A stretch of 64,000 nt of DNA, taken from the IMG/VR virus record IMGVR_UViG_3300023235_001181. One strand, 5' to 3'. Positions within the stretch are counted from its first letter, which is position 1. Every line of letters begins with the position of its first letter. A model generated the notes under the pieces. The model saw only the letters and a list, made by a program, of their open reading frames with translations. It did not search any database and had not been told where the DNA came from. The translations under genes were made by a program, and so were the position numbers. Shown here one piece after another: positions 5,440-59,637 of this stretch. The DNA is from a virus.

Positions 5440-6987
5440 CTACGGAAGTCTGAGAATGTTGATGCCGTCGTCCGTGTGGCGCACCACCTCGTACCCGTGG
5501 CTGATGTAGTAGTCCTTCACCTTGCACAGGTCATGGGCAGCCACCGTGAGTCGCCTTGCAACAAAGGTCTCGGCTACGTGCTTGCCCACACCCATCCCAC
5601 GGTAACCAGGTAGCAGGTACGCGGAGTTCCAGTCCTCATACTGAGCCACGAGCCCGGCGATTCTGCCCCATGCGATCACGGGCGTCAGCTTGCTCTCGGC
5701 AAGGATCTCTTCCTGTCCTACGTCACGGATGTGCTGAGCCCATTCGAGCTTCACGTCTTCCCATTCCGAGCGCATGAACGCTACGTCACCATCACCGAAC
5801 CCGATGAGCGTGCCGTGGTTCACAAGGTCCAGGGTCCAGCTCTGGGAGAGGCGGTACGGTCCGAGGCAGTGCAAGATCTCCTGCGCCTCTTGCACCGTTC
5901 CGCACGGGTACGGGTAGACGGTCTTGGTGTGCGGTACGACGTAGCCACCGTGGAAGTGCAGCAGCGCCTTGAGTCCCTTCATGTCGTGATAAAGGCGCGC
6001 GTGTACCGAGCAGTCGATGGAAGGCTTGACAGTGCCATGAGCGCGCGTCAAACGATCAGAGATGTCAGCACTCGCAAAGATGAACTCGTCCGGCTTCACG
6101 TCACCCTTCTGCACACCGCGCGGGGTAGCCCAGAAGTGGGTGGGGATGGAGCTGATGAGCTGGGTCACGTTGCCGTCAGAGCTGTCAAGGAGGTTGGCCT
6201 CTTGAGCGAAGGCGAGCAGGGCTTGTGCCTCCTCCAAGGAGTCCACGAAGGTGTCCTTGGGGTCAACACCAGGGTAGAGCACGTCTTCGTCGTACAGCTC
6301 GGTCCTGCTCCACTGCACAGCTTGACGGTTGATGCAGAGGTCGACAATGGCTGCGGAAACATCCGTCTTGGAGCCTTCAAGCGGTATGGCCCCTCCCTCT
6401 GGGGTCACCGCGTAGCACGGATGCAGTCCCTTGTTCTCGGGGAGGCTGAGCTTGCTCCAATCGTTCGCGATGGTCAGGTTGATGCGACAGCTCTTCACCT
6501 GCGCCAGTGCCACGCTGATCAACTCATCGTCAGTCACGTCGCTCAGGAGCTTCCACCCTACGATGAAGGGACGGTTGGGCACCCACTCCCTCAGGTTGGC
6601 GAGGATCTTGGGCGTGCGCTTGAGGACGAGCGTCTGCTCGTCGTTCTTGGAGCGGATCTTCCCTTCCACGGGGACGGGAGCGTAGTCGCTGATGGCAGCG
6701 GGCATCAGGATGAAGTCGAAGTCACCCGTGTTTGCCAGGTCCTTCACTTGGTCGTAGAGCTCTTGGTACGTGCGGAACGTGTAGATGCCGCTCACGCCTC
6801 CGACGGTGTCCCCGTACATGCTCAAGGTGCGTTCAGCGGCGAGAAGCGTCACGTTGACACCCCTCGCCGCGAACAGATTGGCGACGGTACACCCGAACCG
6901 ACCCTTGGAGCGGTTGGTGATGACGCGGACGTCGTCGATGTCGACTTCCGTGCCTCCGGTCACGACAAGGGCTCTCAGTTCAGGCAT
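5440..6987 (-). CDS. multidomain enzyme: N-terminal CoaB/DFP-like (phosphopantothenate-cysteine ligase fold) domain + central unknown domain + C-terminal GNAT-like domain
   Basis: 515 aa; ITNRSKGRFGCTVANLFAARGVNVTLL matches CoaB ISNxSSGKMG...GA-VTL signature; C-terminal LLPGYRGMGVGKHV resembles GNAT motif A. Confidence 0.55.
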   Translation of the reverse strand: MPELRALVVTGGTEVDIDDVRVITNRSKGRFGCTVANLFAARGVNVTLLAAERTLSMYGDTVGGVSGIYTFRTYQELYDQVKDLANTGDFDFILMPAAISDYAPVPVEGKIRSKNDEQTLVLKRTPKILANLREWVPNRPFIVGWKLLSDVTDDELISVALAQVKSCRINLTIANDWSKLSLPENKGLHPCYAVTPEGGAIPLEGSKTDVSAAIVDLCINRQAVQWSRTELYDEDVLYPGVDPKDTFVDSLEEAQALLAFAQEANLLDSSDGNVTQLISSIPTHFWATPRGVQKGDVKPDEFIFASADISDRLTRAHGTVKPSIDCSVHARLYHDMKGLKALLHFHGGYVVPHTKTVYPYPCGTVQEAQEILHCLGPYRLSQSWTLDLVNHGTLIGFGDGDVAFMRSEWEDVKLEWAQHIRDVGQEEILAESKLTPVIAWGRIAGLVAQYEDWNSAYLLPGYRGMGVGKHVAETFVARRLTVAAHDLCKVKDYYISHGYEVVRHTDDGINILRLP

Positions 6988-10738: not shown

Positions 10739-11096
10739 TGGATATCTCTCGGTAAGCGATCCGCTCAGGGTCCTCGAAGGAGGATGTCTCTCCGAGGGTA
10801 TCTATGAAGCAGGTCCGGTGGACGGCTGTCCAATAGGAGCTATCAAGAGCGTGGTGGGGCATGACGGCAATCACATCCCCCGCCCGGAGCGTGGCTTGAC
10901 AGTACAGGCACTCCCAAAACTCCAAGAGCGCGGGGTGCCCGTCTGCAAGCTGAACCGGGTGGAACCAACCGCCAGAGTGGTCCTCCATGATGACGGAGAT
11001 CCACTCTGGCGTCACCAACACTCTCCCAGTTTCAGGTACAAGGAGGATGGGGTGAGGCTCCCTGATGCGCACATCGAGGGTAGCCTTCACTTTCAT
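10707..11096 (-). CDS. hypothetical protein
   Basis: 129 aa; stop overlaps AAA gene start region. Confidence 0.4.
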   Translation of the reverse strand: MKVKATLDVRIREPHPILLVPETGRVLVTPEWISVIMEDHSGGWFHPVQLADGHPALLEFWECLYCQATLRAGDVIAVMPHHALDSSYWTAVHRTCFIDTLGETSSFEDPERIAYREISNGTESEPSEG

Positions 11097-13387
11097 CCCA
11101 CTGCCTGCCCGCGAGTGAACATCTGGTGGCTCTGCGCGTAGGTGGTGCGGCAGACGTTGATCTGCTGCCTGATGGCCGCGTTCCCGAGCGTGCTCGTCAG
11201 AGCCGCTTCCACGAGATCAGGAGTGACGCAAGTCTTCTCCGCAACGTGAGCCATCACGGTAGCCTTGACGCCGTCCTGCAAGTCGAACACGTTCATGCCG
11301 TCGAGCATTGCTACCGCCTCCTTGGCGTGCTCCGTGTGGTCCACGATGTAGTTCCGCATCATGGTGAGCCACACCTCGTCGATCACCTTCCGGATCACGT
11401 CGCCGCACGCACCTTCCAAGAGCTCAGCCCACAGCTCGTAGTGCTGGTCCAGGCCGTCCTCAACGGGGAGGAAGTTCTCGATGTAGTGCCGAAGGGTGTT
11501 GGTCCGGTCCTCGAGCGTCATCTCACCCACGATCTCAACGCGGCTGAAGCGGCGCAACATGGGCGTCGGGATGCGCTGCGGGTGGTTGGTGGCTCCCCAG
11601 ATCGTGATGCCGGGGTACGCAACCACACCGTCCATGAGGTTCTGGAACTCCAGGCTCAGGTCAACGCGGCGGCTCAGGTCACCCTGGTCGCTCAGCACCA
11701 TGTCGATCTCGTCAATCAGGATGTGAACCTGCTTGCCGCTCTGCTTCCGGATCTTGATGGCGTGGTCGAAGAGCCGCTTCGGGTTCTTCTGCGCCTCGCC
11801 CATCCAGCAGGTCAGGAAGTCGGAGCCCACCGCGAAGATCGAGATGCTGTCCTCGTGGGTAGCCATGGCCCGCATCACCTGCGTCTTGCCACAGCCCTGA
11901 GGGCCAACGAGAAGGATGTTGTTCTTGTCCGTGCTGCCGGAGGGCGAGGTGATGAGGAAGAGGTTGCCCCACTCGGTCGCGTCCTTCTGTCCTTCCACGA
12001 AGTCCCGTAGGTCGGCATAGCCGGAGCCCCAGATGTTCTCGAGGCTCACGTTGGGACGCTCGCCGGGGATCACCTCCAGTGCGCCGGGTGCTTCGCCGCC
12101 GAACTGGTTGCCCGTGCCAATCTTGCACACGAAGAAGCCGTTGGTGTCGTACAGGAACTTCCGCTCGTCCATCTTGAGGGTGAGTACCTGCTCCACGATG
12201 GCCTTGAGGTCGTCCCCGGTCCAGAGGCACTCGGCTACGGCGCTGAGGCTCGTCTGGAGGTGCTCCTGGGCAAACAGGTCGGTCCGGCTGAGCATCTTGG
12301 TGCCTGGGCGTACCTGAATCTGGCTGAAGTCGAGCAACTCAAGCTCGTCCGCGAGGGTCCGGTACGACTCTCCGGTGCTCTTGCGGTGGATGCTCAGCCG
12401 GTAGAGGTCGATGCCGATGTTGTCCGCGCAAATCTTCGCCACCTCAGAGAGTGTGTCGAGGGTTTCGTGGAGCTGTCCGTAGAGCTGAAGCAGGGCGGCG
12501 ATAGGCTCGAGCAGCAGGTTCCGGTTGACGGGGTTGCGGATCGCTTCGCAGAGGTCAGCCAGCCGCTGCACGGTGAAGGCGGTCAGGTCCTCGCGGGAGG
12601 AGCCGTGGTCGATCTCACCCATCTTGTCGATGTTGTTCCACACCAGCAGAGCGAGGTCCGTGAGTACGGGGTCAGGGTCACGCCAAGTGGCCGTCACCAT
12701 TGCGTGTCCGTCGGCGTGGCGCTTGCGGAGGAGCTGGAAGTAGTTGCTCACCGCCTGAGCAGTCTGCCGGGTGAGTCCGTCGTAGGCAGCCGGTGCCTGC
12801 AACAGCACGTGAACTCCCGCCACGAAGGAGGAGGTCGCGCCACGGTTGAGCTGCTGCTCAAGGGCGAGCTCTCGTAGAGCGTCACCACGTCCCTCGCCCA
12901 ACTTCTTGAGCAGAGCGGCGGCGGTCTCTTCCTTGAGGCCCGCTTCGGCAACCTCGGTTCCGAGCTGGTCCATGGTGTCGTCGAAGCTGACGACGTTGGC
13001 ACCGTTCATCAAGTCCACGGCGCGGATCACACCGTCGTACATCACTTCCATGCCGGTGTACGCTTGGAGCAGGATGGACACGGGGCCGAAGGAGCTTGCG
13101 CCCGCACCCTTGAACATGTCCTCGGGCTCGCCGAAGGTCATCTGCTGGGTGCGTTGGGCGCTGCGGTTGTAGCTCTCGCTACCGAGCCGCTTGGCAATCG
13201 CCTCAAGGCTTTCCTTGCCGAGGCGGATCTGGTCGACGGTGTTGGGCAGGTTGCCCAGCATGTCACGCAAGCCGCCCGCGATCCCCGACTTGATCACCTG
13301 AACGGTCCGGGCGTACCGGATGGGGTCAGAGATGGAGGCTTCGCGGGCCAGTACAGATGCGATGATGCTATCTACGTCGTTGTTCAA
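11093..13387 (-). CDS. AAA+ ATPase (classical AAA clade) with ~470-aa N-terminal extension
   Basis: 764 aa; Walker A GPQGCGKT, Walker B ILIDEID, second region of homology/arginine fingers (GATNHPQRIPTPMLRRF). Confidence 0.8.
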   Translation of the reverse strand: MNNDVDSIIASVLAREASISDPIRYARTVQVIKSGIAGGLRDMLGNLPNTVDQIRLGKESLEAIAKRLGSESYNRSAQRTQQMTFGEPEDMFKGAGASSFGPVSILLQAYTGMEVMYDGVIRAVDLMNGANVVSFDDTMDQLGTEVAEAGLKEETAAALLKKLGEGRGDALRELALEQQLNRGATSSFVAGVHVLLQAPAAYDGLTRQTAQAVSNYFQLLRKRHADGHAMVTATWRDPDPVLTDLALLVWNNIDKMGEIDHGSSREDLTAFTVQRLADLCEAIRNPVNRNLLLEPIAALLQLYGQLHETLDTLSEVAKICADNIGIDLYRLSIHRKSTGESYRTLADELELLDFSQIQVRPGTKMLSRTDLFAQEHLQTSLSAVAECLWTGDDLKAIVEQVLTLKMDERKFLYDTNGFFVCKIGTGNQFGGEAPGALEVIPGERPNVSLENIWGSGYADLRDFVEGQKDATEWGNLFLITSPSGSTDKNNILLVGPQGCGKTQVMRAMATHEDSISIFAVGSDFLTCWMGEAQKNPKRLFDHAIKIRKQSGKQVHILIDEIDMVLSDQGDLSRRVDLSLEFQNLMDGVVAYPGITIWGATNHPQRIPTPMLRRFSRVEIVGEMTLEDRTNTLRHYIENFLPVEDGLDQHYELWAELLEGACGDVIRKVIDEVWLTMMRNYIVDHTEHAKEAVAMLDGMNVFDLQDGVKATVMAHVAEKTCVTPDLVEAALTSTLGNAAIRQQINVCRTTYAQSHQMFTRGQAVG

Positions 13388-13450: not shown

Positions 13451-13909
13451 CTATCTACGGGGGAGCCCCTGATAGAAGACAGCCAAGGGGCCAGTCAGCA
13501 CGTCTGCTACATCGAACGCAGCCGAGGGTGGAGCAGGGAAGCCGTACATGCGCTCACGTAGGCAGGCATCCAACTCCGGCGACCAACGGCTTGTCACAAT
13601 GTCCGCCATCTCCCTCCGGAGGTCAGCGTCAAGCGTGGGGTCGAGGATGGTGATGACGGAGTATAGAGCATTCTCTTGAAGCGACATGGTCTGCAAGGCA
13701 GCACCTACGTCCTCCAGGGTGTCGTACTCAAGGTCGTCAGTGACGAGCCTGTTGTGGGAGTTTGTCATGCGGATGTGCCGTGAGGCGGTCCGTTGGTCCA
13801 CTCCACGCTCATACTCAACCACGCCGCTGCGGAGCCACACGAAGTCGAAGGTCTCACCTGTATCTACTACAGCGAGGCCACCGATCGCGTTGAAACCTGC
13901 CTTCATCAC
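13451..13909 (-). CDS. hypothetical protein
   Basis: 152-aa ORF. Confidence 0.4.
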   Translation of the reverse strand: MMKAGFNAIGGLAVVDTGETFDFVWLRSGVVEYERGVDQRTASRHIRMTNSHNRLVTDDLEYDTLEDVGAALQTMSLQENALYSVITILDPTLDADLRREMADIVTSRWSPELDACLRERMYGFPAPPSAAFDVADVLTGPLAVFYQGLPRR

Positions 13910-13914
13910 TCACC

Positions 13915-14448
13915 TCAAGAAATGGGTACCAACAGCGTACTCATGGAGTTGCCCTGGAACGAGATCTTGCTCTCCACCTTGGCAACGTCGGCCAGGGCCT
14001 CGATCACCTTCATCATCTGCGCTTGACCCACGTCGCGTCTACGCATCTCACGACGGCGGAAGCGTACTTCGACCTTCACCCGACTGCCCTCGCTGATGAA
14101 CTGTCGGATCTTGCGGACCTTGGTGTCAAAGTCGTGGGTGTCCGTAGTGGGACGGAACTTGATCTCACGCACGGAGTTGGCAGCAGAGTTCCTCCGCTGC
14201 TCCTTCTTGGCCTTCTGGCTCGCGTACCGCATCTTCCCGAAGTCGACAATCTTGCAGACGGGCGGGGTGGCATCGGGGGACACTTCAACAAGGTCAAGCC
14301 CTGCGTCCTGCGCGCGGTTGTACGCGTCACGGGTCATGAAGATGCCAAGTTGGCGTCCCGTCTCGTCAATGAGACGTACGCGGGTTGCTCGGATTTCTCG
14401 ATTGCGGCGAGGCCCATTATCGGGACTCTTATCACGGCGAGGGGGCAC
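13915..14448 (-). CDS. infC: translation initiation factor IF-3
   Basis: 177 aa; IRATRVRLIDETGRQLGI...VEVSPDATPPVCKIVDFGK...EIKFRPTTDTHDFDTKVRKIRQFISEGSRVKVEVRFRRREM aligns along full length with bacterial IF-3 N- and C-domains; GTG start after GGAGTAG SD. Confidence 0.8.
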   Translation of the reverse strand: MPPRRDKSPDNGPRRNREIRATRVRLIDETGRQLGIFMTRDAYNRAQDAGLDLVEVSPDATPPVCKIVDFGKMRYASQKAKKEQRRNSAANSVREIKFRPTTDTHDFDTKVRKIRQFISEGSRVKVEVRFRRREMRRRDVGQAQMMKVIEALADVAKVESKISFQGNSMSTLLVPIS

Positions 14449-14530
14449 GAATTCTACTCCTATGTGTCCATCTCACACCCACAGGTGAATCCTGTCGAGT
14501 GGGGGATGGTTTTGGTGTGGTTGCAGTCTC

Positions 14531-15346
14531 TCACGAACTTGCACCAGAGAACACCTGCTGAGGGTTCTCGATGATGCGGCGTTGCCAGGGAGGGATGTGC
14601 GTAGCGGTTACCCAGTGAAGGGAGATCATGATGAGGATTGCGCCGACGTCGTGTGGGCAAAAGTAGTGGATCCAATGTGGGTCCGGTACAGCATACCCGG
14701 CGAATATCGCACTCAGGCGGATCAGAGTAACGGCTATGAAAGAAAGTACCACGACAAACAGGAAGAAGGTGCGCTGTCCCACTGCGCCCCACACTACCTT
14801 CTGGTCTTTCTGACTGATCGCTCCGTTGTAGTTGGCCTCACCCTCATCCTCGAAGGCGCGGCGGTAGAGGTACCTCAGCTCGTCCTTGAGAATAATGGGC
14901 CAGATGATCATGGTGAAGATGGTCAGGCCCCGGACGTATGGCTCTGCACTGATTGACAGGGGTCCGAACACCCACAACAGCAGTCCAGTCACCAGCGTCC
15001 CGAAGGCAATCACCCACTTCGACAGTGTGGTCACCTTCTGGAGAAACGTCGCCACCTTGTCGAGCTGAACGTTGATCTTCACGTCCAGAGAAAGGACCGG
15101 CACCAACACCTTGAAGATGAAGAAGTAGAACGCCTTCTCGCGGAGAGTGTGCGGTACGAGCTGCTCTGTGCCGTTCTCAAGCAACAGGTACGGCTTCTCG
15201 CACGCCGGACACTCGAGTTTGATCGCGCGCACCTTGCCATCGGGTGCGCTGCCTTTGAAGGCTTCTGGACAGTCGAACTTGATCTGAACTTTGCACCGGG
15301 GGCACTCGGCCCCTACGTGTCCATCCTCGTGGAAGCGGAGCATCAC
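14531..15346 (-). CDS. zinc-ribbon membrane protein
   Basis: 271 aa; two CPxC..CPxC pairs at N-terminus, >=5 TM helices after. Confidence 0.45.
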   Translation of the reverse strand: MMLRFHEDGHVGAECPRCKVQIKFDCPEAFKGSAPDGKVRAIKLECPACEKPYLLLENGTEQLVPHTLREKAFYFFIFKVLVPVLSLDVKINVQLDKVATFLQKVTTLSKWVIAFGTLVTGLLLWVFGPLSISAEPYVRGLTIFTMIIWPIILKDELRYLYRRAFEDEGEANYNGAISQKDQKVVWGAVGQRTFFLFVVVLSFIAVTLIRLSAIFAGYAVPDPHWIHYFCPHDVGAILIMISLHWVTATHIPPWQRRIIENPQQVFSGASS

Positions 15347-16026
15347 TCACCTTCGTAGATGTAGCCCTTGTCCTGCTTGCCTTCGATCAGCCGAATGCCG
15401 CAGTTCTTGGGGTTGGGTTCGGCGTTGAGCCATTCAGGGGAGAGGTGCAGCCACATCATCACGAAACAGCGAAGCGTCGTGCCGTGACACACCACGATGA
15501 TGTTGTCGATTCCGTGCCTGTCGCAGTCACGGTGGAACGTGCCGAAGCTCTGATGCACACGAACTGCCACGTCGAAGCGGCTTTCACCACCCCAGGGGCG
15601 AGCGTAGAGCCTGCCTTCAGATGCGAGGCAGCGGTCGTAGTCGTCTGCGATGTGGGGGAAGTGGTCGCGGGTGCTCTCGGAGGCAATGCCGTTGAGGGCT
15701 CCGAACTGCTGCTCAACCAAGAGCAGGTTCTCACGTCGGTCGATGACGTGCTTGGGGTCAAGGCCGCGAACGATGGTGTCCGCCGTCTGACGGGCACGGG
15801 CGTAGGGGCTGTTCCACACGCGGTAGCGGTTGAGGTTGGGCCGCTCATCAAAGCCCTGGCTCTGAGGGTTCTCAGCAAGCCAGGTGTTCAGAGCAACACG
15901 GGCGCGCATAGCCTGAGCCACCCCTTCCTCACTGAGGTCGATGGCGTTGTCGGCAACTCGTCGATACAGCGTCGGGTCGACGTTGCCCTCTGATTCACCG
16001 TGACGGATCAGCAAAATACGCTTCAT
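15343..16026 (-). CDS. histidine phosphatase (phosphoglycerate-mutase family)
   Basis: LLIRHGESEGN catalytic RHG motif; ORF track extends to 16050. Confidence 0.7.
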   Translation of the reverse strand: MKRILLIRHGESEGNVDPTLYRRVADNAIDLSEEGVAQAMRARVALNTWLAENPQSQGFDERPNLNRYRVWNSPYARARQTADTIVRGLDPKHVIDRRENLLLVEQQFGALNGIASESTRDHFPHIADDYDRCLASEGRLYARPWGGESRFDVAVRVHQSFGTFHRDCDRHGIDNIIVVCHGTTLRCFVMMWLHLSPEWLNAEPNPKNCGIRLIEGKQDKGYIYEGE

Positions 16027-16096
16027 GCAAGTTTCCTCTTGTCGGAGCAACGAGTGGTCGCCGTGTGTACTCAGACACCGAACCCAAGGAGGAAGC

Positions 16097-24869: not shown

Positions 24870-25206
24870 GGGCGTCCTTCTTCTTCGGTGGGATCAAGCC
24901 CACCAGGTCCCAGTACACTGAATGTGTTCGGTTGTGGTTGATTTCCAGCCACACGCGGAAGCACTCAGTGTCCAGAGCGAATCGCCCTCCTCTGAGTACT
25001 TTCCCGTCGCGGGTGATCTCCATGGTACGTCCACCCTTGAGCTTCCTACCCCGGCTCGCTGCCACACGACGCACGAACATGATGTCGCGCTCGGCCTTGA
25101 GTACCGTCTCGGTTCCCTTGGGTCCGTGGATGTAGAGGCAGTAGGAGTAGTTCTTGGGCACGCTCACCCCATAGGCTGTGGGTTGATGGTCGGAGGGCGG
25201 TCCCAC
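24865..25206 (-). CDS. hypothetical basic protein
   Basis: 113-aa ORF. Confidence 0.4.
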
Positions 25207-25535
25207 TCGTCAGGCACGGTGCCCAACTGTTCCGTCCAATCAACGCCTCGAGCTATGCAGACGTCAGAGTAGTTCTTGAGGTAGTAGGGAGCCATCAGGG
25301 GGCTGATCCACGGAAGGTTGTCGGCCACGTCTTTCGCGTCCTTCATGCCCATCCCCAGGTCCCGCATGGTCCGGATGACTTCCATCCGGTCACCGCCTGT
25401 GATGGTGACCGTTCCACGGTCGTCAGGGACCATCTTCTGAACCCAGCCACGCTGGAGCACCTCGTTGCAGAGGTCGGTCATCTCCTCGAAATCGAGGGTG
25501 GCAAGGTAGTCTGCTACTTCTTCACGGGTCGGCAT
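25164..25535 (-). CDS. ribosomal protein L7/L12 C-terminal-domain-like protein (paralog 2)
   Basis: MPTREEVADYL...RMEVIRTMRDLGMGMKDAKDVADNLP resembles bL12 CTD ([24 protein letters not shown]); paralog of upstream gene. Confidence 0.5.
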   Translation of the reverse strand: MPTREEVADYLATLDFEEMTDLCNEVLQRGWVQKMVPDDRGTVTITGGDRMEVIRTMRDLGMGMKDAKDVADNLPWISPLMAPYYLKNYSDVCIARGVDWTEQLGTVPDEWDRPPTINPQPMG

Positions 25536-25538
25536 GGT

Positions 25539-25976
25539 TCAGCCCTCGTCGAATAGAAGAGTGGTTCGGTTCAGCGGTCCGGGCTCAACGTACTCAGCCT
25601 CGGCCTCGGGGATTTGTCCCTGTTCACCACCCGGCGTCAGGTCGTAGCGCGCACCGATCCTGTCGAGGATCCCAACAATCTCCGGCTCACGGTCTACGCC
25701 GTCTCGGTCCGTAGGGATCGGGAAAGTCCAGGGGTTGCGGGCAAGGTCCTCGGAGCGTACCTTGGATTCCTTGAGGCCCTCTCCAGTCACGGATCGGATC
25801 AGCTTGATGAGCTGGATCTTGTTGTCACCGAAGGTGTGTACCGTGAGGGTGGTCGGACCGAACTTCTTCACCTTGATCTGCTGCCACCCCGCGCGGATAG
25901 CCTCGTTGCAGATGTCCTCGATGTCGAGGATCTCACACTGAGCGAGGTAGCTGACCACTTCTTCACGGGTTGTCAT
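25539..25976 (-). CDS. ribosomal protein L7/L12 C-terminal-domain-like protein (paralog 1)
   Basis: MTTREEVVSYL...NKIQLIKLIRSVTGEGLKESKVRSEDLARNP matches bL12 CTD helix-turn pattern. Confidence 0.55.
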   Translation of the reverse strand: MTTREEVVSYLAQCEILDIEDICNEAIRAGWQQIKVKKFGPTTLTVHTFGDNKIQLIKLIRSVTGEGLKESKVRSEDLARNPWTFPIPTDRDGVDREPEIVGILDRIGARYDLTPGGEQGQIPEAEAEYVEPGPLNRTTLLFDEG

Positions 25977-43079: not shown

Positions 43080-44051
43080 TCAATCACCGAAGAAGTCCTT
43101 CGCCCACTCGAACTGGAAGCCCGCCCGTGCCGCAAAGGTCTGGTCGCTCTTCATGTCGCCCACGTAGATGCAGGCGTCCGGGTTGAGCTTGTACTTCTCG
43201 ATGAACACGACGCCCATGCCTGCCATCGGCTTGCGCCAGTAGGAGCTCGGGGGTCCACCACGGTCAGGGGCGAACAGGTACTCGATGTCATGTCCGAGCT
43301 GCCGGTTGGTCTCATCGAAGCAGTCGCGGCAGGTGACGTCGCTGACGTACTTGGGGCTGTCCGAGGCTTGGCTCACACCGCTCTGGTTGCTGATGCCCAG
43401 GATCCGGTAGCCCTTGTCGATGTACTCCTGGATGATGGCGGTACGTCCCTCCAGAGCGCGCACGTCCCCGATCTCCTTGGGGTAGTGGTCACCACTGTTG
43501 GTCAGGCGCAACGTGCCGTCGTAGTCGAGCAGCAGAGCCTTCCCCGTGTACTCGGAGCCGAAGTCGGTCACCACGTCCACTTCTTCGATGCTGTCGAAGC
43601 CCTCGGCCATGGTCGGGTCTTCGAACTGCTTCCAGTACGCAAACTGAGCCATGGGCGGGAACATGTTCGGGTTCTTGCGGTGCTTCTTGTACTCGGCCTT
43701 GCCGAAGAGCACACCGAACTTCTGGATCTGACGCCGGGCCGCAAAGAGCTGAGCCTGCTCACGGGTGGTCTGTAGCCACAGCACGCGGACAGGTAGGTTG
43801 AGCTGCCTTGCGTTCACCATCAGGCCCCGGCGTGCGGCGACGTTCCGGTAGGTGTTGTCAAGCACGAAGCGGCGCTTCCCGCGCTTGTACTGCTCCTGCA
43901 TCACCTTGTAGATCTTGCTGTCGGGACTGTTCAGCTTCCCGCCGATCTCGTCACGGTTGATGCGGGTGTAGCCCTGCTTCACGAGGGATTGGACGTGCGT
44001 GGTCTTCCCGCCGCCCGGAGGTCCCATGACAATGACGATTTCGTGTTCCAT
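43080..44051 (-). CDS. pnk: polynucleotide 5'-kinase/3'-phosphatase (T4 Pnk-like)
   Basis: 323 aa; P-loop GPPGGGKTT kinase N-domain; HAD phosphatase C-domain with LLDYDGTL (DxDGT) and GDMKSD motifs. Confidence 0.75.
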   Translation of the reverse strand: MEHEIVIVMGPPGGGKTTHVQSLVKQGYTRINRDEIGGKLNSPDSKIYKVMQEQYKRGKRRFVLDNTYRNVAARRGLMVNARQLNLPVRVLWLQTTREQAQLFAARRQIQKFGVLFGKAEYKKHRKNPNMFPPMAQFAYWKQFEDPTMAEGFDSIEEVDVVTDFGSEYTGKALLLDYDGTLRLTNSGDHYPKEIGDVRALEGRTAIIQEYIDKGYRILGISNQSGVSQASDSPKYVSDVTCRDCFDETNRQLGHDIEYLFAPDRGGPPSSYWRKPMAGMGVVFIEKYKLNPDACIYVGDMKSDQTFAARAGFQFEWAKDFFGD

Positions 44052-44309: not shown

Positions 44310-44720
44310 ACTCCAATCTCCAGGTATGGGTTCTGAGGATCATTCGTGTTGGTGATGGCGATGATGCCGTCCAAATCTCTGAAAATGGTAGCCATCACTT
44401 CGTCGTAGGTGTTCCGGTTGATGATCTGGTCCCTGTGCTTGAGGCACTGACCCTCCGCGAGGAGGATGTCAGGGGTGTACCGCTCCATGGTGGAGGGCCT
44501 CCTGTCCAAGACGAGGAGCAGCCTCTTGTCCTCGTTGTTCGCCAGTTCGCGCCACCGAAGCAGGTACGCTGACCGGACCTGGTACATGGACAGCAACGAG
44601 GTCATTTCGACGTTGAGGTCTGCCCTTGCAGCCTCGGTAGCTGCAAGGGTTTGCATGGCTCCTTCTGACACCCCCTCTTCCGGAGGGGGGTCAATCTCAA
44701 GTAGGAGGTGAAGCCTATCG
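44306..44720 (-). CDS. hypothetical protein
   Basis: ORF to 44821 overlaps Prs gene; true start likely internal. Confidence 0.4.
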
Positions 44721-45701
44721 AGAGCCACCCCAGCCTCGCGGGAGGTGGTGAAGCACGGAGTCCACCAACACCGGAGCGCATCGCATGATGCGGAAGATGC
44801 CGGAGGTGCCTGGCTTGTCAAGGGTGTTCACCATCTTCACGGCGCGCGGGTGGCTGTCAAAGGAGTACACCGCGTCGAGTACGCCGTCGAACATGGCGTG
44901 CGTGTCGGCGGGGCTCTTGGTGTAGACGCCGTGGCTCAGGATCGCGCTGACGCCAATGGCACCCGCGTCCATGTAGCTCTTCGCTCCACCCACGAGGCTG
45001 CTACCGCTCCGGGTCATGTCGTCCACGAGGATCACGTACTTGCCCTTGACGTCGGCGCTGACGTTGGTCACCTCGGTGGTCCCGCCGTCGATGCGTCGCT
45101 TGCCGATGAAGGCAGGGAGCCAGCCACCCATCTCGGAGGCGATGTACTCCACACGCTTCGCACCACCGGCATCAGCGGAGCCAATCACGGCATCAGCGAC
45201 GCCCTGCTCAGCCACGATCTCGCGGATCGCGTCGAGGATGATCGGCTGTCCACGAGAGTGGATCTGGTGGGCTCGGTCTCCGAAGTAGTGGGGGATGCCC
45301 TCTGCATGGAGATCGAGGAACACGATCCGGTTGCCGTTGTAGGCCTCGGGGATGGCGCTGAGCAGCCGGGCGCGCGTCTTGGCAGTCACCACCTCACGCG
45401 TCTTGGGCTTGGCGCGCTCCATGGTGCTGTACCCGAAGTAGGGGATCACGATGGTCAGAGAGCGAGCTCCGTAGGCCACAATCGCGCAGCAAGCGTCGAA
45501 CATCTCCATCGTGTCGTTGTCGTTGATGGTGCCGCCGAGGTACACCACGTCACGGTCACGCACTGAGGTTTCGATGCGCTGGTACCGCTCCCCGTCAGGG
45601 AAGGTCTTGATCAGCACCTCGCCCCGGTCGAAGCAGGGGTCTACGTCAACAAACGTAGGGGCGAGGTACTCGTAGCTTCGGGTAGCAAAGAGAAGAGGCA
45701 C
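44715..45701 (-). CDS. ribose-phosphate pyrophosphokinase (PRPP synthetase) family protein; could be an ADPR-PP-synthetase-type Prs homolog
   Basis: 328 aa; N-domain GEVLIKTFPDGE...RDVVYLGG, DLHAEGI, PRPP loop VILVDDMTRSGSS. Confidence 0.75.
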   Translation of the reverse strand: MPLLFATRSYEYLAPTFVDVDPCFDRGEVLIKTFPDGERYQRIETSVRDRDVVYLGGTINDNDTMEMFDACCAIVAYGARSLTIVIPYFGYSTMERAKPKTREVVTAKTRARLLSAIPEAYNGNRIVFLDLHAEGIPHYFGDRAHQIHSRGQPIILDAIREIVAEQGVADAVIGSADAGGAKRVEYIASEMGGWLPAFIGKRRIDGGTTEVTNVSADVKGKYVILVDDMTRSGSSLVGGAKSYMDAGAIGVSAILSHGVYTKSPADTHAMFDGVLDAVYSFDSHPRAVKMVNTLDKPGTSGIFRIMRCAPVLVDSVLHHLPRGWGGSR

Positions 45702-45714
45702 GTTGGTTCTCCTT

Positions 45715-46902
45715 TTAGAGGACGCTCTCTACGATACGAACGTAGAGGTCATCCAGCTTGTCCATGTCGGGGCTGTAAGGTAGCACGGGAGTGAGCTCGG
45801 GAAGGGGCTCGAGGCCCTTCTTCACCCGCGCAGTCACACGCTGCTTCTCGGTACCGTAGTACGATGTGTAGATGTCACCGAGAGCGGCGTTCTCGCGATC
45901 AGCCCAGTCCACCAACTCGTCGTAGGTCCAGGCACCCTTGCGGATAGCGAGGAGCTCTTCACGGTCGATCCCGCCGCGCCACACATGCACCTTGCCCGTC
46001 GTCAAGATCTCCCGTCCCATGCGGAGCAGGCGAACGAGGTGGGCACCGTGCTTGGTGTCGTAGCCGGAGGCAGCTTCCAGCGCAGCCCGCTTGGGGTTCC
46101 GCTGACGCTTCCAGGTCTCGAAGCTCTTCCAGTTCTTTTGGGCGTCCTTGTACCGCTTCTCACCCTTGAGGGCCTCGAGCAGTCCTTCGTCGATCCCGAT
46201 GGAGCGTGCGGCAGCAATCCACAGTTCATCGTCGGTGGTCACGCCGATGGTGGCGAGGGTCTCAGCGATGTTGTCCTTGGCGCGGATCTTCTCGCTGTCG
46301 GCCATTTCGCCGAAGTCCCACTTCCACTCGTCAAGCTGCTTGTCGATGGCGGCGAGGAGCACGTTGCGCTGATGCTGCGTCACCACTTCCTCACCGAGGC
46401 CAAACTCCTCGCGGGTCGGCTTGTGGGTCGGAGGGTTGAGCAACCAGGCCCGGTGTCCCTTGATGCGCTTGAGCTGCTGGAAGGCGTAGCCGGTGAAGCG
46501 GTGCTTGGCGGCTCCACTCAGGAAGAGGTCCCGGTGTTCGCGGAGCAACTGCCCGGCCCAGTTGTGCATGAGCAGCTCTTCGTCGCGGCAGAAGAGCACG
46601 TCGAGCATTCCGGGGTTGCAGTCGGCGGTCAGCTTCATGAACTTGCCGAGGCCGTACACGACGCCCTCGAGCTTCTCGCGTTCGGCGGCGTCCATCTGCT
46701 CGGCGTCGAGGTACTTGCGGAAGGGTTCCATCTGCCCAGGCTTGTCGCACTGGTCGAAACGCTTGCGGAAGGTCAAGTGGTACGGACGTGGAGGTAGGCA
46801 GACGCCCTTGAGGTCTACGTCCGAAGTGTCGGTGTGGAGCCCGTAAGCTCGGGAACCAGCCACTCCAACGAGGATCGCAGAGTCATGTAGGTCGAAATCC
46901 AT
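45715..46902 (-). CDS. nucleotidyltransferase (Pol-beta superfamily) with C-terminal extension
   Basis: 395 aa; GSRAYGLHTDTSDVDLKGV; second copy of the family in the window. Confidence 0.6.
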   Translation of the reverse strand: MDFDLHDSAILVGVAGSRAYGLHTDTSDVDLKGVCLPPRPYHLTFRKRFDQCDKPGQMEPFRKYLDAEQMDAAEREKLEGVVYGLGKFMKLTADCNPGMLDVLFCRDEELLMHNWAGQLLREHRDLFLSGAAKHRFTGYAFQQLKRIKGHRAWLLNPPTHKPTREEFGLGEEVVTQHQRNVLLAAIDKQLDEWKWDFGEMADSEKIRAKDNIAETLATIGVTTDDELWIAAARSIGIDEGLLEALKGEKRYKDAQKNWKSFETWKRQRNPKRAALEAASGYDTKHGAHLVRLLRMGREILTTGKVHVWRGGIDREELLAIRKGAWTYDELVDWADRENAALGDIYTSYYGTEKQRVTARVKKGLEPLPELTPVLPYSPDMDKLDDLYVRIVESVL

Positions 46903-52544: not shown

Positions 52545-54038
52545 TCACCTCATTGTCGGGAACAGAATCACGTCCCGAATTGATTGTGTGTCTGTCAACA
52601 GCATCACGAGCCGGTCGATGCCAATCCCCTCACCGGAGGTGGGAGGCATACCGAAGCTCAACGCGTCGATGTAGTCCTGGTCGAAGTACATGGCTTCATC
52701 GTCCCCGCGTGCCTTGGCAGCAGCCTGGGCCTGGAAACGAGCAGCCTGCTCAACGGGGTCGTTCAGCTCTTGGAAGCCGTTGGCGATTTCCATACCGGCG
52801 ATGTAGAGCTCGAAGCGGTCTGCTACCTCTGGGTCATCAGCAGATGCTCGAGAGAGTGGGCTGATGTCCAAGGGGAATCCGGTCACGAAGGTCGGCTGGA
52901 TCAGCTTGTCCTCAACGTACTCGTCGAAGTAGAGCTGGAACCACCGCCCGATGGTCCGGGGGAGCTTGGTAGCGTCCGGGTGGTCCTGTACCCACCTCGA
53001 GCGCATCTCGGGCATGGAGAAGGGGTCGTTGATGCCCGCGTGCTCCATGATCAGGTCGGCCATGCTCACGCGCCTGAAGGTGGTCAGGTCAAGCTCGTGC
53101 CCGTCGTAGGTGCAGACGTCCATCGGAAGGAACTCGCCAACCCGGCAGGCTTCCTCGTAGATGACGCGGTTGTTGGCACCACGGATGATGGCTTCGGTGG
53201 TGTCCATCAGGTCAGCCGGTGTGGCGTGGGCCTGATAGAACTCCAGCATGGTGAACTCGGGGTTGTGCGTCCCGTCCACTCCCTCGTTCCGGAAGTTGCG
53301 GTTCAGCTCGAACACTCGCTCGTAGCCACCCACGATGAGCCTCTTGAGGTAGAGCTCAGGGGCGATGCGTAGGTAGAGGTCCTTGTCGAGAGCGTTGTGG
53401 TGCGTCACGAATGGTCGTGCGTTCGCACCGCCTGGGAGCGTCTGCATCATCGGCGTCTCCACCTCCATGAACCGATGGTCTTCAAAGTACCTCCGGATGT
53501 AGGATACGATGGTGCTGCGCGCACGGAACCGGTCGCGAGTGTCTTGGCTCACGATGAGGTCGAGGTACCGCTGACGGCGCTGCTGCTCCACGTCGGTGAA
53601 CCCCGCGTGCTTGTCCGGCAGGCTCTTGATGCACTTGGAGTAGAGCGCAAGGCTGTCCACCTTGAGGCTCAGGTCACCGCGTCGGGTACGGATGAGCTGC
53701 GCTTCTGCGTACACCCAGTCGCCGATGTCCAACTTCTTCCACACGTCGGCGTACATGACGGGGCCGATGCCCGCACGGCGCACGAACAACTGCATCCGGC
53801 TTTCGCCATCCTCGATGAAGGCGAAGCCAATCTTGCCCATCTCGTTCTTCTGGACGATGCGTCCGGCCACACGGTAGACGGTGGTCTGCGCCTCCAACTC
53901 CTCCGCGCTCAGATCAGCACCGATGCGCAAGATCTCGAGCAGCCGGTGGCTGAGGTCCTTGGAGACGGGATAGGGATCTACGCCTTCAGCGCGTAGTGCG
54001 TCCAACTTTTCCAGCCGTGCTGGTTCAAATTCGCTCAC
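52545..54038 (-). CDS. lysS: lysyl-tRNA synthetase, class II
   Basis: 497 aa; motif 2 FRNEG..HNPEFTMLEFY, motif 3 GEGIGIDRLVMLLTDTQSIRDVILFPTMR, N-terminal OB anticodon-binding domain. Confidence 0.85.
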   Translation of the reverse strand: MSEFEPARLEKLDALRAEGVDPYPVSKDLSHRLLEILRIGADLSAEELEAQTTVYRVAGRIVQKNEMGKIGFAFIEDGESRMQLFVRRAGIGPVMYADVWKKLDIGDWVYAEAQLIRTRRGDLSLKVDSLALYSKCIKSLPDKHAGFTDVEQQRRQRYLDLIVSQDTRDRFRARSTIVSYIRRYFEDHRFMEVETPMMQTLPGGANARPFVTHHNALDKDLYLRIAPELYLKRLIVGGYERVFELNRNFRNEGVDGTHNPEFTMLEFYQAHATPADLMDTTEAIIRGANNRVIYEEACRVGEFLPMDVCTYDGHELDLTTFRRVSMADLIMEHAGINDPFSMPEMRSRWVQDHPDATKLPRTIGRWFQLYFDEYVEDKLIQPTFVTGFPLDISPLSRASADDPEVADRFELYIAGMEIANGFQELNDPVEQAARFQAQAAAKARGDDEAMYFDQDYIDALSFGMPPTSGEGIGIDRLVMLLTDTQSIRDVILFPTMR

Positions 54039-54164: not shown

Positions 54165-55736
54165 TTAGGCTGCCGCAGCCACCGCTTCCGCGCGGGCTCG
54201 GGTACACGTCTCGATCAAGCTCAGGGTGATGCCGTCCACGGCGGGTCGGTGTTCGAAGCCGTCACGTCGCGCCGAGTCACCGGGTCCGTACACACGCCAG
54301 CCCTTCGGGAGGTTGCCGTACTGACACACCATCGTAGCGGGTCCGTGTGAGGGGTGAGCAGCGTTCTCGCGCACGGCGAGTACCGGGATGCCGGGGAGGC
54401 TCTGCTTCCCGCTCCAACCCTCTTCCAGCTCATCGCCGAACTTCATGGTCGGTCCGTACTTGGACGTCCAGGCGAGCTTGTAAACCATGCTCACCAAGCC
54501 ACGTCGGTAGCCGGTGGGCTCCGGGCGGTCGATGAAGTAGCCGCCCGCGCCAAACAGCGTCACCTCTTCGGGGTAGTCAACCTCGATGCGGAGCGCCTCG
54601 TACCGTGCAACGTCCTTGTCGTCGATGCCGTCTTCAAATACCCACGGGCGGGGTCGGATGCCGCGTGCCTTGATCTCGCTCACGATGTAGCGGAACTGCT
54701 CCTCAAGGGAGCCGCTGTCGGGTCGCATCCCGTCGTTCCGGTCCGGAAACTCTTCCATGAGCTTCAGGGCGGTCGGGATGCCCACCTTCATCGTGTCGTT
54801 GGTGTCGAGCAGCATGATCACGAGGGGCATTGCGGCGATGTGTGCGCGGAAGGCGCGTTCGTCGTTGCCACCGTGGCGCATGATGCCCTCATGGCCCAGC
54901 GTGCCAACTGCCTTGATGTCCAGCACGTAGGCACCGTAGGCGTTGGAGGTCAGCGTGAAGCCGAGGTCCTTCAGAGCCTTGAGCGCGATGAGGTGCTGCT
55001 CCATGCAGGTTGCGGCGCGGAGGCCAACCTCGAAGATGCGGTTCGGGCTCACGCCGGAGGCCAGCATCTTGATGCCCTGCAACTGCACCGCGTTGTAGTA
55101 GCTGAGCTCGTCCACGGTGATGCCGTTTTCGATGTCCCGCAGCTCCTGTCGGAAGTCGGCATCGCCGAAGTCCCTGCCCTTGTGGGCACCGAGGATCGCC
55201 TCCATGGTGAGCTCCTTCTGGCGCTCACAGGTCACGGTGCGGATGGTCTCGAGGAAGGCGGGCATCGTGTCGCCCTCGCGGGCCTTGATGTAGGCGGTCG
55301 CTACCTGCATCTGGTAGCTGAAGCGTCCCGAAACCAACGGCTCGAGCCAGCTTGCGATGGCCTGAGGAGCTCGCACGGTAGCCACGGGCTCACGGGGAGC
55401 AGCGTACTCGCCAAAGGGTGTCGCGTAGAGCACCTCAAGGCTGGAGCCGTCCACGGAGTCCCACAGCATCTTCTCGGTCACGTTGAAGCCGAAGTGCTGC
55501 AGTAGCGCGCACTCTTCCTTCACGGTCGCTGAGGTGGGGTTGGGGATCATCTCGCGGATCGCCGTCTCGGGATCCACAGGCATGAACATGAGCCCGCCGC
55601 GTCGGAAGCTCAGATAGAACACTTCCTTCTCTTCGGGGCGTCCGCCAGCCATCATGGGCCACTTGTAGCCGTCCGATCCGAGGGTGCTTTCGCGCCAGGA
55701 TCGCTTGCCTGCAAGTAGTTGTCGTAGAATGCTCAT
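54165..55736 (-). CDS. nadV: nicotinamide phosphoribosyltransferase family protein (NadV/Nampt-like; alternatively a Namat-type transferase)
   Basis: 523 aa; GSDGYKWPM (cf. TDSYKVTH), GIRPDSGSLEE (cf. RPDSGNP), FGAGGYF (cf. FGSGGGL). Confidence 0.75.
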   Translation of the reverse strand: MSILRQLLAGKRSWRESTLGSDGYKWPMMAGGRPEEKEVFYLSFRRGGLMFMPVDPETAIREMIPNPTSATVKEECALLQHFGFNVTEKMLWDSVDGSSLEVLYATPFGEYAAPREPVATVRAPQAIASWLEPLVSGRFSYQMQVATAYIKAREGDTMPAFLETIRTVTCERQKELTMEAILGAHKGRDFGDADFRQELRDIENGITVDELSYYNAVQLQGIKMLASGVSPNRIFEVGLRAATCMEQHLIALKALKDLGFTLTSNAYGAYVLDIKAVGTLGHEGIMRHGGNDERAFRAHIAAMPLVIMLLDTNDTMKVGIPTALKLMEEFPDRNDGMRPDSGSLEEQFRYIVSEIKARGIRPRPWVFEDGIDDKDVARYEALRIEVDYPEEVTLFGAGGYFIDRPEPTGYRRGLVSMVYKLAWTSKYGPTMKFGDELEEGWSGKQSLPGIPVLAVRENAAHPSHGPATMVCQYGNLPKGWRVYGPGDSARRDGFEHRPAVDGITLSLIETCTRARAEAVAAAA

Positions 55737-56742: not shown

Positions 56743-57861
56743 CTACTTGCTGAGCTGCTGCACAGCTTCCAGCAGTCCGCCACCAATGGTCACGGAGCTG
56801 AGGTTGCTGAGGCCTGCGGGGATGCCCTGGATGGCCAGTGCGAGTGCGGCTTCACCCTTCTCCTCGAAGGCTGCGAGCTGAGCCTCAACCTCGGCCACGC
56901 GGGCTTCACCGAGCGCCTCTTCCTGAGCGACGGTCTGAGCGTCCACGGAGATCCGAATGGCGAGTGCCTGCTCGTCGGAAGCAGCCTTGTTCTCGAGGCG
57001 CTGGGCCTCGGCGTTGGCGGCGTCCTCGAGCTGACGTGCGGAGGTGAGCTCCTGAGCCCTGAGGTTGGCCTCAGTCTTCTTGCGCCCCTGCTCCAACTCG
57101 GCGTCCGTGCGGATGCTCACAACAGCAGCGGAGCTGGCTTCCGAGGCCTCACTGTTCACGCGGTCCTGAGCGATCAGGGCCTCGCGCTGCTTGGCGAGCA
57201 GAAGCTTGTTGTTCAGTGCCGCTTCCTCGATGGCACGCTCCTTCTCAGTAGCGTTGGCACGCCGGTCGAAGGTGGCCTCGTCAGCTTCCTGCTTGAGGCG
57301 CTCGTTGGTCTTGGTCTGGAGGGCCTGAGCAACGTCCCGGTTGGGCTTGATGCTGGTCACGCTTGCGGCGAACACCTCGATGCCGATGTCCAGCGCCTGG
57401 AGGGCGGCAAGCACAACGTCGGAGATGGCCTTGGGGTCATCCACAAGCAGCGGCTCGAGCTCCTGCTGGGAGATGTAGCTCCACGCCGCCTGCTGCGCCG
57501 TGTTGGTCAGCACCGTGGCGATGTCCGTGGAAGGGTCGCCCAGCGGAGTGCCGGTGTCGGTGTCCACAGCGAAGTTGAAGCGGGAGGCGATGTTGAGCGC
57601 CGCTTCAACTCCTACGCGCCACTGGCCCGTCGCGCTGACGGTGACGTCCTGGAAGTCCTTGGTGCGGCAGTTGAAGGTCAGCGGGACGGTCTGGTCCACG
57701 ACGGGTACCTCAGAGAGGCTCGTGCCCTTGGTCCAGAACCACAGCCAGAAGCTGAGGCCGGTGCCGCTCTTGGTGACCTTGCCACCTGCAGATGCGATCA
57801 GAAAAGTGTGAGCCTCGCCACGCACGTTGCGTAGAGGCCCGAAGGTTGAGATGGTTGCCAT
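56743..57861 (-). CDS. SPFH/band-7 (flotillin-like) protein
   Basis: 372 aa; N-terminal SPFH-like region then ~200-aa A/E/Q-rich coiled coil with EA repeats. Confidence 0.65.
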   Translation of the reverse strand: MATISTFGPLRNVRGEAHTFLIASAGGKVTKSGTGLSFWLWFWTKGTSLSEVPVVDQTVPLTFNCRTKDFQDVTVSATGQWRVGVEAALNIASRFNFAVDTDTGTPLGDPSTDIATVLTNTAQQAAWSYISQQELEPLLVDDPKAISDVVLAALQALDIGIEVFAASVTSIKPNRDVAQALQTKTNERLKQEADEATFDRRANATEKERAIEEAALNNKLLLAKQREALIAQDRVNSEASEASSAAVVSIRTDAELEQGRKKTEANLRAQELTSARQLEDAANAEAQRLENKAASDEQALAIRISVDAQTVAQEEALGEARVAEVEAQLAAFEEKGEAALALAIQGIPAGLSNLSSVTIGGGLLEAVQQLSK

Positions 57862-57958: not shown

Positions 57959-58177
57959 TCAAACGCCCTTGATGTCCCGTAGTCGCTTGAGCTCAAACGG
58001 GCTCGCGTGTTCGGTCCAATGGGTCCACGGGTCCACACCCAGTTCCTTGCCGACGTACTCGATGTTCTCGAGCTCCTTGCCCAGATCCGTTTCCCCGACG
58101 CCATGTGGGTCGTCGGAGAAGAGGTCGAGGTAGAGCTCGAACAGCTCGGCAACGAATTCCTGGGTGCGTGGTGTCAC
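57959..58177 (-). CDS. small hypothetical protein
   Basis: 72 aa. Confidence 0.35.
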   Translation of the reverse strand: MTPRTQEFVAELFELYLDLFSDDPHGVGETDLGKELENIEYVGKELGVDPWTHWTEHASPFELKRLRDIKGV

Positions 58178-58818: not shown

Positions 58819-58858
58819 TTGGGTCCGTTCCTTGGGTCGTTGTCCGTAGTGCTCCCCC

Positions 58859-58887
58859 AACGCATCACGCGGGGGAGCACTCAGAGG
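58859..58887 (-). promoter_or_regulatory. bipartite promoter-like motif (CCTCTGAGT-N14-TGCGTTG) overlapping a 10-bp-stem hairpin GTGCTCCCCC/GGGGGAGCAC
   Basis: minus-sense gagaaaaCCTCTGAGTgctcccccgcgtgaTGCGTTGggggagcac; lies between clpP stop and next gene. Confidence 0.45.
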
Positions 58888-59583: not shown

Positions 59584-59637
59584 TTGGTGCTCCGTTGAGG
59601 TCATTTTCACAGGACGGTGATCGGGTTTCAATAGTGC

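Follow-up and report, generated by a model that had tools for sequence, protein, structure and literature searches.

The stretch of DNA analysed here (IMG/VR virus record IMGVR_UViG_3300023235_001181; 64,000 nucleotides, hereafter the window) carries on its minus strand an open reading frame that encodes translation initiation factor IF-3 (IF3; infC-like), a complete two-domain protein of the bacterial type. The gene, its translation start region and the parts of its product are as follows:

14473..14475, minus strand: in-frame upstream stop codon TGA, 24 nucleotides (nt) upstream of the GTG, bounding any N-terminal extension
14457..14461, minus strand: Shine-Dalgarno (SD) sequence AGGAG, 8 nt 5' of the GTG at 14448
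13915..14448, minus strand: IF-3 coding sequence of 177 amino acids (aa), GTG start, TGA stop
14197..14403, minus strand: IF3 N-terminal domain, residues 16-84 (Pfam and structural model)
14176..14196, minus strand: Lys/Arg-rich interdomain linker, residues 85-91, the end of a long helix (70-91) in the model
13924..14175, minus strand: IF3 C-terminal, 30S-binding domain, residues 92-175 (Pfam and structural model)
14035..14064, minus strand: arginine-rich loop RFRRREMRRR, residues 129-138, specific to the clade of this protein; the cellular consensus is RFRGREMAHQ

The original prediction, made from the letters of the DNA, had named the gene as a full-length IF-3 with both N- and C-domains, and Pfam, TIGR00168, phmmer and structural superposition all agree with that claim. 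The Pfam search proposed with it matches both domains nearly end to end, IF3_N (PF05198) at residues 16-84 (E 3.3e-29, 101 bits against a gathering threshold [GA] of 26.9, profile positions 2-70 of 70) and IF3_C (PF00707) at residues 92-175 (E 2e-28, 98.6 bits against a GA of 34.8, profile positions 2-85 of 86), and the placement in the family holds. The NCBIfam equivalog TIGR00168 (infC) is reached at 185.2 bits (cutoff 60) with 163 of 170 model positions covered, and a PHROG scan of the window proteins matched the gene product to the phage IF3 family phrog_9787 ("translation initiation factor") at 1.1e-43. In a phmmer search against PDB sequences, Escherichia coli IF3 (8jsg) was matched at E 4.5e-40 over residues 14-175 with a single one-residue gap, the identity being 44% across 163 aligned positions. 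An AlphaFold2 (AF2) model built from 68 homologs (mean predicted local distance difference test score [pLDDT] 87.1) places the N-domain on 1tif with a root mean square deviation (rmsd) of 1.0 Å and a template modelling (TM) score of 0.93, and the C-domain on 1tig with an rmsd of 1.4 Å and a TM score of 0.90, while at full length it matches 30S-bound IF3 (5lmn_X, 5lms_X).

The protein resembles the cellular IF3s of E. coli (8jsg) and Thermus thermophilus (5lmn) in length, in its two domains and in its long linker helix, and its numbering follows that of E. coli as far as about residue 160. Key residues found in both the window protein and cellular IF3 include R25 and Y75 in the N-domain and R99, D106, K110, R112, R129, R131 and R133 in the C-domain; Q33 is also kept, and K66 and F107 stand in place of E. 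coli R66 and Y107. R25 is invariant, and R25, Q33 and R66 touch the elbow of the initiator tRNA (PMC9723500). In IF3, Y75 is critical, D106 and K110 have been linked to interaction with the ribosome, ribosome binding and dissociation require R112, and R131 sits on an exposed loop linked to start-codon discrimination (PMC3401457, citing Petrelli 2003 and others).

On the coding strand, the sequence leading into the gene reads TGA GAT GGA CAC ATA GGA GTA GAA TTC GTG. The GTG start had been questioned in the original prediction, and it is upheld here as the assigned true start on the basis of the in-frame stop 24 nt upstream, the AGGAG at 8 nt and a start region that is kept in a 76%-identical metagenomic relative (L086). 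The 18-nt start region ATAGGAGTAGAATTCGTG is identical in L086, in which it is preceded by unrelated sequence, the tail of a truncated phosphatase gene, and the coding regions share 77% nucleotide identity. The sole alternative start between the TGA and the GTG is an ATA (14463-14461), which has no SD and overlaps the SD of the GTG, and no SD-supported AUU, AUC or AUA (AUH) start is available in this interval. In two remoter relatives, the start codon is TTG (L087) and ATG (L088). Across the window, an SD of at least 4 nt precedes 58 of the 94 genes compared with 18% of random positions, and scans for promoters and terminators gave nothing beyond the shuffled expectation.

The replicon that carries the gene is very probably a huge phage. 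The window has a GC content of 60% throughout and holds ~94 genes, closely spaced, with few exceptions on the minus strand, and in many cases ORFans. Besides phrog_9787, phage families are matched by a phrog_388 nucleotidyltransferase, a phrog_7313 protein, a dCMP deaminase, a NinI-like phosphatase, a DNA polymerase exonuclease subunit, a PRPP synthase and a NAPRT-like protein. Two ENA contigs of ~114 kb, from different samples, span the whole window, run ~40 kb past its end and are the longest contigs bearing IF3 itself, while two flanking proteins (P0121 and the 862-aa polymerase P0125) recur identically on a 257,533-bp JGI contig, to which a third flanking protein, PhoH, is also common in the form of a cluster variant (P0127). 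Linked genes outside the window encode a topoisomerase IA, an HU-like protein, DnaB, an SNF2 helicase, PhoH and a T5orf172 protein, and a linked AAA protein belongs to the phage family phrog_8638 (3.6e-97). The linked DNA polymerase A (PolA) has its best phage match in the uncultured 485-kb phage LR745208.1 (34%), and the N-terminus of a linked 1610-aa protein matches LR745208.1 (39%, 6e-53), Bacillus phage G gp211 and Tunturiibacter phage Tunturi_5 gp247, the last of which is annotated as a tail fibre and is located amid virion genes. Some 3 kb ahead of the window, there are genes for an endolysin-like PG_binding_1 protein (phrog_33083/1493) and a T4-type dNMP kinase. The earlier claim that the gene is phage-encoded is thus supported by phage-like gene content, by the ~114-kb contigs and by the proteins shared with the 257,533-bp contig. 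As a separate observation, both ~114-kb contigs (L094, at its record position 1; L090/k141_124603) end at nearly the same point, ~9.5 kb before the window start, which may mark the terminus of the genome or a repeat at which assembly breaks off.

The element has few counterparts in the collections searched. A megablast search of the 10 kb around IF3 against 50,697 phage records gave no match, a 670-aa flank protein had no tblastn match, and the flanking topoisomerase used as a metagenome query returned only bacterial topoisomerases of 33-40% identity. No GTDB species genome matched the element, the scan giving only ordinary cellular infC genes of 40-49% identity, which served as controls. Scans for tRNA and Rfam found no tRNA, rRNA or Rfam element (including the L20 leader) in the window, and thrS, rpmI and rplT are absent from the surroundings of IF3, so that the thrS-infC-rpmI-rplT context is not present. 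The main alternative to a huge phage is a non-viral giant element, and a cellular origin is very unlikely.

Among 5.8 billion proteins searched, only three closer relatives of the window IF3 were found (76%, 66% and 52% identity), each of them located on a short metagenomic contig; L086, L087 and L088 form a clade of four with the window protein. The next nearest sequences are cellular IF3s at ~50% identity, those with a name being without exception alphaproteobacterial (among them Hyphomicrobium and Xanthobacteraceae, with Hyphomicrobiales nearest), and in an exhaustive search of 1.84 billion cluster representatives the score falls from 245 bits for a clade member to 167 bits. A rough neighbour-joining tree, built without bootstrap, places the four clade sequences on a branch of their own, sister to proteobacterial IF3s and apart from the IF3s of the phages Phosso, Atu_ph07, A4, Munch and LR756511 (30-39% identity to the window IF3). 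The locus represents a fourth, very divergent IF3 lineage, of which only four distinct sequences occur among the billions of proteins searched. Exact-peptide and clade-profile scans of IMG/VR for this IF3 gave no match; IF3 as such was found by two motif patterns in 53 IMG/VR loci, many on contigs longer than 100 kb, with none more than 45% identical to the window IF3. The same protein, without any change, is encoded by contigs of several samples, in which the gene copies carry 0-2 nt differences, each of them synonymous, and the ratio of nonsynonymous to synonymous substitution rates (dN/dS) is 0.13 against L086; the gene is under purifying selection.

IF3 genes have been described before in huge phages, alongside IF1 and ribosomal-protein genes (Al-Shayeb et al., 2020, Nature 578:425; PMC7162821), in the jumbo phages of the Atu_ph07-like "group 2.2" (Iyer et al., 2021; PMC7824862), in the phage Sharanji (PMC11895373) and in huge phages of soil and glacier forelands (PMC11748809). 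That IF-3 is rare in phages and found mostly in very large ones, as had been stated from the outset, is confirmed by tblastn, which matched IF3 in 41 of 50,697 phage records; the named isolates among them are mostly of 337-490 kb and the uncultured huge-phage assemblies of 462-735 kb, the exceptions among named phages being two Vibrio phages (41 and 52 kb) and one Pseudomonas phage (48 kb), and the remaining records are mostly short unannotated fragments. The IF3s of the cultured jumbo phages, namely the Agrobacterium phage Atu_ph07 (AUZ94813.1), the Sinorhizobium phage Phosso, and Asteriusvirus and relatives (Escherichia phage A4, Salmonella phage Munch, Sharanji), are like the window IF3 in being full-length, in having a canonical start and in residing in a very large genome with other translation genes; they differ from it in their identity of only 30-39% and in their less basic C-domains (+1 to +5). 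Similarly, the window element resembles the metagenomic huge phages (Al-Shayeb et al., 2020; PMC11748809) in being uncultured and in combining IF3 with a lysyl-tRNA synthetase (LysRS) and L7/L12-like genes, and one metagenomic huge phage, LR745208.1, gives the best matches of the linked PolA and tail-fibre-like protein, whereas the closest IF3 in phage records reaches 45% identity and the window has no tRNA genes. The window IF3 is a divergent addition to the phage IF3s already documented, not a new type, and is the expected gene type in the expected genome type.

Two features set the window IF3 apart from cellular infC in addition to its phage-like replicon outside the thrS-infC-rpmI-rplT neighbourhood. 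The first is the GTG with a strong SD in place of an autoregulated AUU, AUC or AUA. In cells, the AUU or AUC start of infC is the target of autorepression by IF3 (PMC5499595). This was confirmed in alphaproteobacteria: Devosia infC has an ATT start with an SD, and Hyphomicrobium infC probably starts at an ATC with AGGAG 7 nt upstream, the annotated ATG lacking an SD. When the start was chosen by the best SD among the candidate starts upstream of the conserved N-domain, AUH was favoured in 61 of 80 cellular infC loci (5 canonical, 14 ties) and in 6 of 52 IMG/VR viral loci (32 canonical, 14 ties); the starts of cultured-phage IF3 genes are GTG in Phosso and Atu_ph07 and ATG in A4 and Munch. In the literature library searched, no paper treats this contrast between viral and cellular infC. 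The mostly canonical starts suggest that virus-borne infC genes have escaped from autorepression by IF3.

The second feature is the C-domain, which is far more basic than that of cellular IF3, with RFRRREMRRR for RFRGREMAHQ and QGNSM for EGRQM. Arginines have been gained at R132, R136, R137 and R138; in the 116 nearest cellular homologs, the first three of these positions are G132, A136 and H137 (in 113-116 of them), and position 138 is always Q, S or T. The net charge of the C-domain (residues 97-175) is +8 in the window IF3 and +8 to +9 in all four clade members, compared with a mean of +2.3 and a maximum of +3 in the 116 nearest cellular homologs, a mean of +3.6 and a maximum of +5 in 80 GTDB cellular IF3s, and a mean of +3.4 and a maximum of +9 in 52 IMG/VR viral IF3s (3 of the 52 at +8 or more).

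The best explanation, which we consider fairly likely, is that the gene is an auxiliary translation gene of a huge (at least 257 kb) uncultured tailed phage and encodes a complete IF-3 maintained by purifying selection. Given a phage origin, the protein probably serves as a working IF3 on the host 30S subunit during infection, and its synthesis would be freed from autorepression. Its C-domain would bind the platform of the host 30S subunit and its N-domain would contact the elbow of the initiator tRNA, and it would perform the usual tasks of IF3, namely maintenance of a free 30S pool through anti-association and recycling, and proofreading of both start codon and initiator tRNA. Initiation could in this way be sustained, or tilted towards phage mRNAs, once host IF3 becomes limiting. 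Since the canonical GTG with its strong SD takes the place of a self-repressed AUU, AUC or AUA, synthesis of the phage protein would not be capped by IF3 levels, and the arginine-rich C-domain (+8) might confer a higher affinity for 16S rRNA and allow competition with host IF3. The analysis establishes the identity and fold of the protein, its conserved functional residues, the start site, purifying selection, the phage-type context and the difference in start codons between viral and cellular genes; that it binds host ribosomes, when it is expressed and whether it competes or selects are what we infer from the sequence. For the activities of IF3 on the 30S subunit, the conservation of sequence and fold and the dN/dS of 0.13 are the arguments. 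Huge phages carry pieces of the translation apparatus, and phage IF3 forms part of the growing evidence for this, with roles that are inferred for such factors generally. The replacement of a self-repressing AUU-type start by a canonical one in the viral copies predicts deregulated, high-level synthesis, and the arginine-rich loop beside the residue implicated in start-codon discrimination predicts an altered 30S affinity or fidelity; if these predictions are true, it would become clearer whether phage initiation factors top up the host supply or redirect it.

Several observations weigh against this explanation. In PHROG scans, neither the 94 window proteins (E <= 1e-6) nor 10 flank proteins matched a capsid, portal, terminase or sheath family, the ~105 kb read (out of at least 257 kb) yielded no capsid, portal or terminase gene, and the designation as a phage is based on genes of auxiliary, replication, lysis and tail-fibre-like types. 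As to the host, the LysRS of the window is nearest to metagenome-assembled genomes (MAGs) of Myxococcota and unclassified Alphaproteobacteria and IF3 to Hyphomicrobiales-like Alphaproteobacteria, and the host assignment is uncertain on these sequence affinities. Three arginines of the E. coli C-domain are altered (R116->Q, R147->K, R168->N), and these are said to have been tied to 30S binding by Petrelli et al. in 2003 (JMB 331:541). The basic charge is also shared with others, 4 of 136 diverse IF3 cluster representatives (mean +3.5) having +8 or more; as a unique feature it was rejected, and it is read as a marked shift from the nearest relatives, an outlier among the nearest cellular homologs yet within the upper tail (~3%) of diverse IF3s. 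Finally, the difference in start preference between viral and cellular loci (Fisher p = 1.2e-15) comes from a crude heuristic applied to sequences that are not phylogenetically independent, with cellular controls that are mostly Firmicutes and Chlamydiae, although the difference is a large one.

A rival that we regard as unlikely keeps the phage and changes the role of the protein, which would be an IF3-derived takeover or inhibitory factor, unregulated and hyper-basic, holding the host 30S subunit more tightly than host IF3 does. Such a factor might, at the same low probability, shift the choice of mRNA by a stricter rejection of non-canonical or leaderless host starts, and just as doubtfully it might further repress translation of host infC or block the formation of 70S or 100S ribosomes. 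The clade-specific loop RFRRREMRRR around R131, a residue implicated in start-codon discrimination (PMC3401457), speaks for it, as do the C-domain charge of +8, where the nearest cellular homologs reach +3 at most, and the canonical start codon. On the other hand, the residues known to be important for normal IF3 are all retained in a standard fold, a plain block of subunit joining would stop phage translation too, and comparable charge is seen in some other IF3s, the change of specificity being a prediction from the sequence. The two readings are not separable by sequence data alone. In a bolder form, to which we likewise give little credence, viral infC as a class would have dropped the autoregulatory AUU, AUC or AUA start, and the hyper-basic IF3 of this clade would be a dominant competitor of host IF3, reprogramming start-site selection or 30S availability; if this is true, it would be a takeover factor and not a spare part.

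That the replicon is a non-viral giant extrachromosomal, megaplasmid-like element with a spare infC is improbable. The lack of capsid, portal, terminase and tail-sheath families in the window proteins and the flanks read would fit such an element, and ClpP, LysRS, topoisomerase IA, HU and DnaB may also be plasmid-borne; only ~105 of at least 257 kb were read, however, and virion genes may lie elsewhere. The element encodes the endolysin-like protein, PhoH, the T4-type dNMP kinase and T5orf172, many of its proteins fall in phage-only PHROG families (phrog_8638 at 3.6e-97, phrog_7313, phrog_388), and the best annotated matches of PolA and the 1610-aa protein are to huge phages, including the "tail fiber" of Tunturi_5, while no partition, conjugation or replication-initiator genes were noticed in the ~105 kb.

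It is very improbable that IF3 is a recently captured passenger without a role in infection. Nothing specific favours this beyond the fact that huge phages do hold sporadic host-derived genes, whereas IF3 has been kept over four lineages diverged to 52% protein identity, with common local synteny (a His_Phos_1 gene upstream and a 152-aa ORFan, g023, downstream), a dN/dS of 0.13, a conserved translation start region and no close cellular sequence. That the gene is an ordinary chromosomal infC, the window being cellular DNA or a mis-binned host fragment, can be set aside as scarcely credible, for although the protein passes the infC equivalog score and some short "phage" IF3 records are host-like (for example, infC beside thrS in CAKLQH020000014.1), thrS, rpmI and rplT are not nearby, the 64 kb hold no tRNA, rRNA or Rfam element, the start is canonical whereas 61 of 80 cellular genes favour AUH, the nearest cellular IF3 in the 5.8-billion-protein search is at ~50% with a drop from 245 to 167 bits, and the element is phage-like in gene content and density and is not found in GTDB species genomes.

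The genes that surround IF3 in the window are the following:

11093..13387, minus strand: classical-clade AAA+ ATPase of 764 aa (CdvC/Cdc48/FtsH-like domain, residues 439-702), two genes downstream of IF3
13451..13909, minus strand: ORFan of 152 aa, starting 5 nt past the IF3 stop; it also follows IF3 in L086 and L087
14531..15346, minus strand: predicted membrane protein of 271 aa, encoded directly upstream of IF3, with an N-terminal CPRC...CPAC zinc-ribbon-like (CxxC...CxxC) motif, then hydrophobic segments
15343..16050, minus strand: histidine phosphatase (His_Phos_1, RHG motif), directly upstream of IF3 in L086 and L088

The 152-aa ORFan has only two database relatives and no Pfam or NCBIfam match, and its AF2 model (pLDDT 71.7, residues 1-122 folded) resembles no PDB fold at E < 0.8. 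The membrane protein has no family match, and a homolog lies upstream of IF3 in L087 and is missing from L086 and L088. The His_Phos_1 gene, which reaches no specific NCBIfam equivalog cutoff, is upstream of IF3 in three of the four clade members and adjacent to it in two (L086 176-532, L088 171-881), the L086 copy being truncated to about 118-137 aa. The original prediction had placed IF3 next to the large AAA+ ATPase; the ATPase gene is indeed nearby, with one 152-aa reading frame between the two, so that they are not directly adjacent. A functional link between IF3 and the AAA+ ATPase was rejected as a general rule, the ATPase gene not being beside IF3 in L088.

Other phage IF3 genes have different neighbours. 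In Phosso, Atu_ph07 and 8 of the 53 IMG/VR loci, a clpX-like gene immediately precedes IF3, and in A4 and Munch a ClpS-like adaptor gene immediately follows it; neither arrangement occurs in the window, where the neighbours are instead the His_Phos_1, membrane-protein, ORFan and classical AAA+ ATPase genes. The pairing of Clp and IF3 genes recurs among other huge phages and was seen in L098, L099, L101 and L102 and in the IMG/VR loci L196, L200, L222, L225, L231, L233, L236 and L237. As support for the AAA+ link, the clpX-infC and infC-clpS pairs were discounted, as they involve different proteins and look lineage-specific.

The two L7/L12 C-terminal-domain-like genes to which the original prediction also drew attention exist (25164..25535 and 25539..25976, both on the minus strand), while their match to L7/L12 is weak and partial (PF00542 at 19.4 and 27.7 bits, GA 25.9, with ~30 of 67 profile positions). 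They are adjacent paralogs with a common N-terminus (M-T/P-TREEV..YLA) and a partial motif, e.g., NKIQLIKLIRSVTGEGLKESK, and by sequence they are not full L7/L12 proteins.

Further genes of the element include a ClpP-like protease gene (58894-59631, minus strand; NF001368 at 239.7 bits, just below the cutoff of 249), for which matches to "head maturation protease" PHROG families are better explained by ClpP homology; its neighbours are Band_7/SPFH, DUF3228 and isochorismatase-like genes (56743-57861, 58174-58860 and 59677-60402), not head genes. A set of NAD-salvage-like and RNA-repair-like genes on the minus strand encodes a NAPRT-like protein (54165-55736), a PRPP synthase (44715-45701; phrog_619), an RlaP-type nucleotidyltransferase (45715-46902; phrog_388, 7e-51) and a polynucleotide-kinase-like protein (43080-44051), and a second phrog_388 member lies at 122-712. 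In addition, a gene at 5440-6987 (minus strand) encodes a 515-aa protein in which a phosphopantothenate-cysteine ligase (DFP/CoaB) domain is fused to a class II aldolase/adducin domain, and as a coenzyme-A-pathway gene it is unusual in a phage. The second translation gene of the window encodes a full-length class II LysRS (52545-54038, minus strand; NF001756 at 614 bits, cutoff 468), the nearest cellular homologs of which are 55-61% identical proteins from Myxococcota and Alphaproteobacteria MAGs. About 8 kb from it, two LPG_synthase_C genes (lysyl-phosphatidylglycerol synthase C-terminal-like) stand around a methyltransferase gene (61845-63537, minus strand, and L090 9051-11693), and the pair could provide a lysyl-tRNA-dependent transfer activity.

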